This document shows, piece after piece, positions 7,401 to 7,943 of a stretch of 64,000 bases of DNA. Under the pieces are notes generated by a model, which saw only the letters and a program-made list of their open reading frames with translations, was not told the DNA's origin and did no database searches. The translations under genes and the position numbers were made by a program. Position 1 is the first letter of the stretch; every line of letters begins with the position of its first letter. The stretch is from a virus (lineage: Duplodnaviria; Heunggongvirae; Uroviricota; Caudoviricetes), in IMG/VR virus record IMGVR_UViG_2861084961_000001, one strand, 5' to 3'.

Positions 7401-7506
7401 CAAACGTTCGGCTGAGATTAACGTGCTCATGACACGGATGGCGGCTGAAATGGGCTTAGGTGATGAACTAATCCGCCCAGCATTGGTATTAAGCCGAAAA
7501 TCATGA
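4431..7506 (+). CDS. dnaE: DNA polymerase III alpha (DnaE-like), fragmented into six ORF pieces by frameshifts
   Basis: PHP domain at N-terminus; motifs [87 protein letters not shown] in successive ORFs 4431..5015, 5012..5209, 5227..5865, 5892..6611, 6608..7015, 6922..7506. Confidence 0.75.
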
Positions 7507-7943
7507 TCATTCTGGACAATGCGAACGGCAATGATGCTCGAACCGGTTACTTCATGGAGAACGGATACGACGATTTTAAGGCCAAGCTATTGACGGCTGG
7601 AGATTTACGCATGGGCGATCTCTATGTCACAGGCGTTTGCAAAAAGGTGAAAGACAAAGAAAAGGACTACACCAAAGACGAGATCGGCCAGTTCACCGAC
7701 TTTATGCGTGAAGAGATCAATCTGGTGCGTCCGACCTATGTGCTGACGTGTGGCAGCCGGGCAACGGCATTGTTTAACAACAAAAACAAGCCATCCGATT
7801 TGGTCGGCAGGAAGGAGTATCTTCCAGACCTTGACGTTACTGTCTTTTACGGGTTTAACCCCAACATTCTTTACTTCAGACCTGAAGAGGGAGAACGACT
7901 AGAAGCGATATTAGCCGACGTAGCAGAAACTATTAAGACGTGA
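7503..7943 (+). CDS. uracil-DNA glycosylase-fold (family 4-like) protein, possibly fused to DnaE in the true sequence
   Basis: Weak pattern match to UDG family 4 blocks (YVTGVCKK, LVRPTYVLTCGSRATALF, FYGFNPNILYFRP); no Fe-S cysteines. Confidence 0.35.
   Translation: MIILDNANGNDARTGYFMENGYDDFKAKLLTAGDLRMGDLYVTGVCKKVKDKEKDYTKDEIGQFTDFMREEINLVRPTYVLTCGSRATALFNNKNKPSDLVGRKEYLPDLDVTVFYGFNPNILYFRPEEGERLEAILADVAETIKT

Follow-up and report, generated by a model that had tools for sequence, protein, structure and literature searches.

The 64,000-nucleotide (nt) stretch of viral DNA analysed here (IMG/VR record IMGVR_UViG_2861084961_000001, Caudoviricetes; hereafter the window) stems from an SSU5-like phage-plasmid of Enterobacteriaceae and carries, at 4431..7943 on the + strand, the gene dnaE of a DnaE-type replicative polymerase whose C-terminal part is predicted to fold like a uracil-DNA glycosylase (UDG). 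In the raw sequence seven successive + strand open reading frames (ORFs), with the frame shifting between them, cover 4431-7943, and the Pfam domains PHP, DNA_pol3_alpha, DNA_pol3_finger and HHH_6 are spread over these ORFs, which marks them as one fragmented polymerase. At 7503..7943 (+) lies an ORF of 146 amino acids plus a stop codon, which starts with ATG and shares bases with the TGA of the upstream ORF 6922..7506. From the sequence alone this small ORF had been described as overlapping the dnaE stop, which is correct (ATGA, 7503-7506), as resembling family-4 UDGs weakly, and as a possible C-terminal domain of the polymerase.

Sequence identity of the region amounts to 95.6-97.5% with Escherichia phages CMS-2020a and PhiR41_1, 92% with phage Cyrano and 83% with Salmonella phage SSU5, all of them SSU5-like phage-plasmids. 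In these four phages and in the RefSeq plasmid pMRY16-002_2 the same DNA constitutes a single dnaE ORF or coding sequence (CDS) of 3519 nt (1172 amino acids), or 3507 nt in the case of Cyrano.

Homopolymer errors split dnaE

Aligned to two independent references, PhiR41_1 and pMRY16-002_2, the stretch 4431-7943 contains exactly six insertions or deletions (indels), all of them deletions of one base inside a run of four to six identical bases, and the frameshifts that had been claimed for dnaE are thereby confirmed in the assembly. On the + strand, CCCC is reduced to CCC at 4977..4980 (~4980), CCCCC to CCCC at 5151..5154 (~5154), AAAA to AAA at 5852..5855 (~5855), AAAAAA to AAAAA at 6600..6603 (~6603) and TTTTT to TTTT at 6946..6949 (~6949), these positions being approximate within each run. 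The sixth deletion, at 7476..7478 (+; ~7475), where the window has CCC and the relatives have CCCC, parts the flagged ORF from the remaining dnaE. Restoring the six bases yielded a single dnaE ORF of 1172 amino acids with zero internal stops, which differs from the RefSeq plasmid DnaE WP_096488228.1 by 34 nt and 7 amino acids. The original prediction had proposed checking whether the ORF is in frame with dnaE in a corrected sequence; it is, corresponding to DnaE residues 1027-1172 and starting at an internal methionine (M1027) in the first β-strand of the domain. Given this corrected ORF and the single dnaE CDS of the relatives, the flagged ORF is the C-terminal part of DnaE and has no gene of its own.

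Neighbouring genes are broken by the same kind of shortening: a CobT-like gene is split into 814-2067 and 2271-2921 (break at 1959), a CobS-like AAA ATPase gene into 3017-3289 and 3268-4251 (break at 3257), and a third break, at 4406, hits a small ORF whose end is at 4424. All nine coding-region indels in about 10 kb, distributed over several unrelated genes, are single-base homopolymer shortenings, and the 3601-nt dnaE query is shorter by 6-7 nt than each of the 12 E. coli plasmid matches listed. Because all indels are one-base homopolymer deletions, the relatives are intact and neighbouring genes are hit alike, the dnaE frameshifts are homopolymer undercalls and thus an artefact of assembly or sequencing. 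This conclusion, taken jointly with the identity of the SSU5-like element, is one we consider practically certain, and further genes of the window are probably affected as well.

A genuine origin of the frameshifts would make dnaE a decaying pseudogene and the 146-residue ORF either its leftover or a newly independent, ATGA-coupled gene. The frameshifts and the ATGA stop/start overlap do stand in the raw sequence, and databases contain short 'partial' versions as well as a PHROG family of 146 amino acids, phrog_13175. We nevertheless rejected pseudogene decay as extremely improbable, given the homopolymer character of all nine indels and their presence in unrelated genes, the intact relatives, the longer plasmid matches and the mostly synonymous nature of the substitutions (34 nt for 7 amino acids); moreover, the ATG is the internal methionine of β-strand 1, so that a protein starting there would be a truncated fold without its N-terminal helix. 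Programmed frameshifting or translational coupling at the ATGA was likewise rejected, since the extra C is present in five relatives with an ORF or annotation and five like errors occur in the same gene.

Database entries of 110-148 amino acids (phrog_13175; P0003, P0004, P0058, P0102) correspond to this C-terminal part of DnaE; for P0058 and P0102 at least, the start is the conserved internal methionine seen here too, which suggests that frameshifted or truncated dnaE copies are commonly annotated as separate small proteins. Entries of 110-146 amino acids labelled 'partial DnaE' or 'unknown function', phrog_13175 among them, may share an artefact origin. For the annotation of the window it follows that a separate 'UDG-like ORF' and a split dnaE are homopolymer artefacts and that the assembly needs polishing.

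A predicted UDG fold at the C-terminus of DnaE

Profile matches of single sequences were weak. The flagged ORF alone matched the Pfam UDG profile PF03167 with E=0.0015 and 19 bits, and the full-length PhiR41_1 homolog with 15.8 bits, against a gathering score of 24.3; with the NCBIfam model TIGR00758 (UDG family 4) the ORF reached E=5.9e-9 and 35.9 bits against a curated cutoff of 125.3. The four best matches in a sequence search of the PDB were all family-4 UDGs (E 0.04-0.16). While a single-sequence word-index search returned only nine fragmentary matches, some of them frameshifted, HMMER, run exhaustively against 1.84 billion representatives, revealed the family, with 132 relatives. Counts for the clade, here and below, refer to the 97 polymerase-associated copies that match over at least 125 residues. 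Of these, 36 come from proteins of at least 900 amino acids and have the domain at the extreme C-terminus, and about 30 more relatives are proteins of 380-455 amino acids in which it is C-terminal too. Among five long relatives (579-1528 amino acids) scanned with Pfam, four (P0024, P0028, P0014 and P0055) combine polymerase domains with a PF03167 match above the gathering score (28.7-38.5 bits), the UDG match being absent in the scan of the fifth, P0011.

Two clade profiles, both built without any genuine UDG, were more sensitive. The profile of the 97 polymerase-associated copies matched Thermus thermophilus (Tth) UDGa with E=6.7e-17 and true UDGs with E 1e-17 to 1e-25, other family-4 UDGs scoring up to 91 bits. 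In the profile of the C-terminal part of DnaE, the first half matched Pol III alpha and positions 210-387 matched residues 2-188 of 4zbx with E=5.5e-29. An earlier profile, containing three genuine family-4 UDGs, was swamped by such UDGs and was uninformative on fusions. With relatives taken into account, the family-4 resemblance originally noted as weak in the ORF far exceeds chance.

Structure prediction, which had been named as a check with an unrelated fold as the outcome that would speak against a UDG, returned the α/β fold of the UDG superfamily with its four-stranded parallel β-sheet. The AlphaFold2 model of a 155-residue piece (predicted local distance difference test score, pLDDT, 92.6; predicted template modelling score, pTM, 0.88) was closest in Foldseek to the Sulfolobus tokodaii (S. 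tokodaii) family-4 UDG 4zby, with a template modelling score (TM) of 0.88 and a root-mean-square deviation of 2.3 Å, followed by Tth UDGa 1ui1 (TM 0.85) and UdgX (0.81), TDG being more distant. Against the PDB, Foldseek gave 65 matches at E<=1e-3, and the 50 listed were all UDG, UdgX or TDG structures. A structural search of viral models (BFVD) retrieved phage UDGs and the UDG domains of many phage family-A polymerases. Taken together, the models and profiles indicate that the domain has a UDG fold, closest to family 4; with the family-4 enzymes (Tth 1UI0, S. tokodaii 4ZBX/4ZBY, Thermotoga TM0511) it shares the predicted fold (TM 0.85-0.88) and homology over the full length, including the N-terminal helix.

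Architecture of the polymerase

After correction, the 1172-residue product of dnaE (4431..7943, +) comprises PHP, Pol3 palm, fingers, (HhH)2, a helical linker and the UDG-like domain. PF02811, PF07733, PF17657 and PF14579 scored above their gathering scores in the window fragments and in the intact PhiR41_1 homolog, and TIGR00594 reached 628 bits against a cutoff of 434, so that the core of a DnaE-type C-family polymerase is present; all scores with the NCBIfam DnaE equivalog models were below cutoff. The UDG-like domain occupies approximately 7399..7940 (+), or DnaE residues ~992-1172 (~180 residues), and spans the last frameshift, which places it in two frames in the assembly. The interval 7503-7943 given before hence misses the beginning of the domain, which is located further upstream, at about 7399 and before the last frameshift. 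The part that is missed includes an N-terminal helix that matches the CxxC helix of family-4 UDGs.

Modelled with AlphaFold2, the last 374 residues form one compact unit (pLDDT 92.6, pTM 0.85) in which the (HhH)2 region is followed by a helix (964-977), a stretch of coil, a second helix (992-1008) that is the counterpart of the family-4 N-terminal helix, and finally the UDG sheet. No OB fold or tau-binding C-terminal domain was matched by Pfam, and no β-barrel was predicted in the 374-residue model. As only about 35 residues of helix and coil separate (HhH)2 from the UDG-like domain, there is no space for an OB domain and none is predicted; according to these models, the UDG-like domain sits at the location that the OB and tau-binding domains have in cellular DnaE1. 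The polymerase of the window thus resembles E. coli Pol III alpha in its homologous PHP, palm, fingers and (HhH)2 (E ~1e-27 to 1e-200) and in a candidate Qxx(L/M)(F/L/M) motif after (HhH)2, and differs from it in having a UDG-like domain instead of the OB fold and tau-binding domain.

Earlier descriptions and distribution of the fusion

The fusion of DnaE and UDG is genuine and widespread, and its domain architecture has been published before. Timinskas et al. (2014, Nucleic Acids Research 42:1393, PMC3919608) described a UDG-bearing DnaE on plasmids from Yersinia pestis as well as Salmonella enterica, with the 'DnaEX' architecture PHP-Pol3-(HhH)2-UDG, in which the OB and C-terminal domains are replaced by PF03167. 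The protein of the window belongs to the same family, with the same architecture, the same archaeal (family-4) type of PF03167 and the same occurrence as an additional polymerase on enterobacterial plasmids; nothing essential sets it apart, the window copy merely looking split through assembly errors. The loss of catalytic residues and the spread in phages lie outside the discussion of that paper (PMC3919608). Earlier, Kazlauskas and Venclovas (2011) had pointed out that viral C-family polymerases differ from E. coli alpha at their C-termini, leaving the domain unnamed (PMC3201878). Our literature search found no paper testing a DnaE-linked UDG-like domain.

In databases, 244 of 5426 complete E. 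coli genomes (4.5%) match the gene, always on a plasmid and never on the chromosome, and it is annotated there as a single dnaE. In PLSDB, 968 plasmids carry it, the hosts including Klebsiella (346), Escherichia (218), Acinetobacter (137), Enterobacter (91), Yersinia (63) and Salmonella (49); the copies on Y. pestis and Salmonella plasmids are 94-95% identical to the window in the UDG-like domain. Deposited phages with the gene are SSU5-like elements, Pseudomonas nickie-like phages and Rhizobium RHEph10-like phages, and annotated phage records always label it 'DNA polymerase III alpha'. The fusion had been called unusual, which it is in comparison with cellular DnaE; with an earlier publication (PMC3919608), 968 plasmids and many phages it is neither new nor rare.

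Some relatives are interrupted by mobile elements. On Acinetobacter baumannii plasmid NZ_AP022239.1 (1219-5462) dnaE is naturally split by a NUMOD4 homing-endonuclease gene, giving in order a DnaE of 785 amino acids, the NUMOD4 gene and a 421-residue protein with (HhH)2 and the UDG-like domain, annotated as 'uracil-DNA glycosylase family protein'. Judging from this one locus, such a split probably explains at least part of the relatives of 380-455 amino acids and phrog_4335. The 1528-residue relative P0055 resembles the DnaE-UDG fusions and is interrupted by an intein that includes a LAGLIDADG homing endonuclease; the Pfam match of this intein (726-1133) lies after the fingers domain and before the (HhH)2 region.

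Catalytic and Fe-S residues are replaced

The residues of the domain were mapped onto the Tth UDGa sequence, which we checked to be identical to 1ui0_A; roles of residues were taken from PMC5387724. The absence of the Fe-S cysteines, predicted earlier, was confirmed, with all four [4Fe-4S] cysteines gone in the window protein: C84 is replaced by K1074 (Cys in 5/97 of the clade) and C100 by Q1089 (not Cys), C13 has no aligned residue, and the C16 column holds Pro in 81/97. The 155-residue domain has just two cysteines, C1072 and C1109, both at non-cluster positions.

Beyond what had been predicted, the uracil-recognising Asn and the catalytic His are replaced too, which argues against ordinary UDG activity as far as residue identities can tell. 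N80 corresponds to G1070 (7632..7634, +) and is Asn in none of the 97 copies, A/G/S/T accounting for 94. The leaving-group-stabilising H155 corresponds to N1145, a position with N in 60, S in 23, T in 12, G in 1 and H in 1 of the 97. The stacking F54 is M1044, Phe in 6/97 and mostly non-aromatic. Motif A is degenerate, reading LDNANG (L1030-G1035; 7512..7529, +) in place of the family-4 motif GE(A/G)PG, with the clade consensus x-D-x-P-(N/S/T). Within it E41 is matched by D1031 (Asp in 87/97), G42 by N1032 (variable) and P43 by A1033 (Pro in 72/97), the third position of the motif being variable in the clade (C/A/G/S/N). Motif B, (F)HP or HP(S/A) in family 4, has degenerated to F-N-P (F1144-P1146; 7854..7862, +), with the Pro kept in 94/97 and the following Arg not conserved. 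Outside these motifs E47 is matched by D1037 (acidic in 92/97) and N89 by E1079 (variable), and the equivalents of Y77, T79, K83, G121 and P156 are kept.

In Tth UDGa, the substitution H155S reduces k2/Km by a factor above 1000, and N80A by a factor of about 40 (PMC5387724). Because both N80 and H155 are replaced here, efficient canonical uracil excision by the UDG-like domain appears unlikely. The domain thus departs from family-4 UDGs in lacking the [4Fe-4S] cysteines, in its LDNANG motif A, in having G, M and N at the positions of N80, F54 and H155, in its TIGR00758 score (35.9 vs 125) and in being fused to a polymerase, family-4 enzymes being free-standing.

A candidate clamp-binding motif

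Just after (HhH)2 lies the sequence QAELM (Q970-M974; 7333..7347, +), a candidate β-clamp-binding motif that is helical in the AlphaFold2 model. The surrounding motif R-x-x-D-Q-x-E-L-(L/M)-P-G (window 7318-7356, residues ~965-977) is conserved in about 60 of 70 relatives; per position the Q is found in 63/70, the L in 55/70 and L/M in 57/70, and Q-x-E-L-(L/M) in 54-63/70. E. coli alpha has its clamp-binding motif, QADMF, at 920-924 (PMC3201878), likewise shortly behind (HhH)2. Pentapeptides that bind the clamp cleft are of the type QL(S/D)LF or Qxx(L/M)F. HMMER profile alignments did not align QAELM with QADMF, as they end at residue 895-896 of E. coli alpha, and we infer the likeness by eye and from conservation. 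Earlier work had found such a clamp-binding motif in one phage C-family polymerase only. If QAELM does bind the clamp, processivity would probably come from the host β clamp through the Qx(E)L(L/M) motif upstream of the UDG-like domain, which would leave the latter free for another job.

Neighbourhood of dnaE

A perfect 10-bp inverted repeat, AAACATGGCC ATAAA GGCCATGTTT (7950..7974, +), begins 7 nt past the dnaE stop. It looks like a terminator hairpin, though its T tract is short, and a consensus terminator scan did not call it. At 8047-11995, 3' of dnaE, follows a T4-like recombination and replication set with a UvsY-like mediator, a gp32-like single-stranded DNA-binding protein (SSB), a 5'-3' exonuclease and RecA; in the window as well as in Cyrano these are unusual neighbours for a bacterial-type DnaE. 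The replication module of Cyrano comprises helicase, primase, ligase, DnaE, UvsY-like protein, gp32-like SSB, FEN, RecA and an epsilon-like exonuclease. Annotations of a clamp or a clamp loader are missing from the 49 kb of Cyrano inspected. What lies between dnaE and the UvsY-like gene varies: this site holds nothing in the window or PhiR41_1, an extra hypothetical gene and an excisionase-like regulator in SSU5 (5436-6757), and a HicAB toxin-antitoxin pair in Cyrano (21113-21961).

Possible functions of the UDG-like domain

UDG folds occur in other viral replication machineries. Phage family-A polymerases also contain a family-4-type UDG fold inside a replicative polymerase; they differ in polymerase family (A vs C) and in that their UDG domain lies at the N-terminus, that of the window polymerase at the C-terminus. 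These family-A UDG domains are active in SPO1/SP15-like phages (bioRxiv 10.1101/2025.03.26.645540) and degenerate in N4-like phages, for which a role in processivity has been suggested (PMC10201439). In the N4-like PolA the catalytic residues are lost as well, and a processivity or structural role is proposed for the domain. The domains of SPO1/SP15-like phages, in contrast, are catalytically active and linked to modified thymidine; no thymidine-hypermodification gene was noted in the 49-kb Cyrano annotation, in which no dedicated search for one was made. Poxvirus UDG D4 (E4), part of the D4-A20-polymerase holoenzyme, likewise places a UDG fold in a replicative machinery with a role independent of catalysis. 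Unlike the domain studied here, D4 is a separate subunit, related to family 1 and still catalytically competent, and its partner is a family-B polymerase.

We favour, at close to even chances, the reading that the UDG-like domain has a non-catalytic part in DNA handling or in structure and stands in for the OB and tau-binding region. Having lost the cluster cysteines and the Asn, His and Phe of the active site, the domain would excise uracil at no useful rate, and as a built-in module it might take over the task of the absent OB domain, for instance by keeping the template strand in place or steering it close to the polymerase. Precedent exists in the inactive UDG domains of N4-like PolA and in vaccinia D4, for which a function as processivity or structural module has been proposed or shown (PMC10201439, PMC3201878, PMC4889955). 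The explanation as a whole, in which this mechanism is blended with the identity of the ORF and the artefact, we regard as likely. Several points weigh against the mechanistic part. The non-catalytic role is deduced from residue loss, and MUG/TDG enzymes (family 2), with an Asn in motif B and without the uracil-specific Asn, are still active glycosylases. Near-invariance of the Asp at E41 (87/97), the acidic residue at E47 (92/97) and the Pro of motif B (94/97) could mean that the pocket is still in use. Finally, the conserved clamp-like motif suggests that the domain would not be needed as sole processivity factor.

Alternatively, the domain could be an active glycosylase with a non-canonical catalytic set, which would remove uracil or another base from the template ahead of the polymerase, comparable to the UDG domain of SP15-like family-A polymerases. 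Active UDG-PolA fusions do read deoxyuridine ahead of the fork (bioRxiv 10.1101/2025.03.26.645540), the clade retains its acidic residues and motif-B Pro, MUG/TDG-type enzymes function with a motif-B Asn (PMC5387724), and in the SSU5 subgroup motif A reads D-N, its Asn standing where MUG has the catalytic Asn. We consider such an activity unlikely, however, in view of the replacement of N80 in 97/97 and of H155 in 96/97 copies, the mostly non-aromatic residues at F54, the variable third position of motif A and the unconserved Arg after motif B. The E. coli host, moreover, already supplies Ung. Furthermore, H155S by itself lowers k2/Km of Tth UDGa by over three orders of magnitude (PMC5387724). 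Quite unlikely, too, is that the domain acts mainly as a protein-protein module in the place of the tau-binding C-terminal domain, linking the polymerase to the helicase, primase or gp32-like SSB of the phage or to the clamp. Its location where the OB and tau-binding domains would be agrees with this, as do the helicase, primase, SSB and epsilon-like exonuclease that the element itself encodes, the lack of a clamp loader or tau among the annotations in the 49 kb of Cyrano inspected and the action of vaccinia D4 via contacts with A20 (PMC4889955). Its conserved positions, on the other hand, belong mostly to the UDG core and pocket, with no obvious surface patch, and the compact model of 374 residues (pTM 0.85) is uninformative on partners.

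Returning to a non-catalytic module, we tentatively propose, as a possibility short of an even chance, that the UDG fold was independently recruited by the replicative polymerases of the three major families, A (SPO1/N4/SP15-like phages), B (poxvirus D4) and C (a large clade of DnaE from phages and phage-plasmids), and that in family C it is repurposed and excision-dead, with an OB-like role on template or single-stranded DNA or in sensing template damage without cutting. If true, phage replisomes without tau would share a general solution of a kind not characterised before. SSU5/pHCM2/pMT1-like phage-plasmids are common in clinical Enterobacteriaceae, including the pMT1-type plasmids of Y. 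pestis, and whether the UDG-derived domain of their polymerase serves in template binding, uracil sensing or partner contact bears on how phage replisomes that lack a clamp loader are organised.

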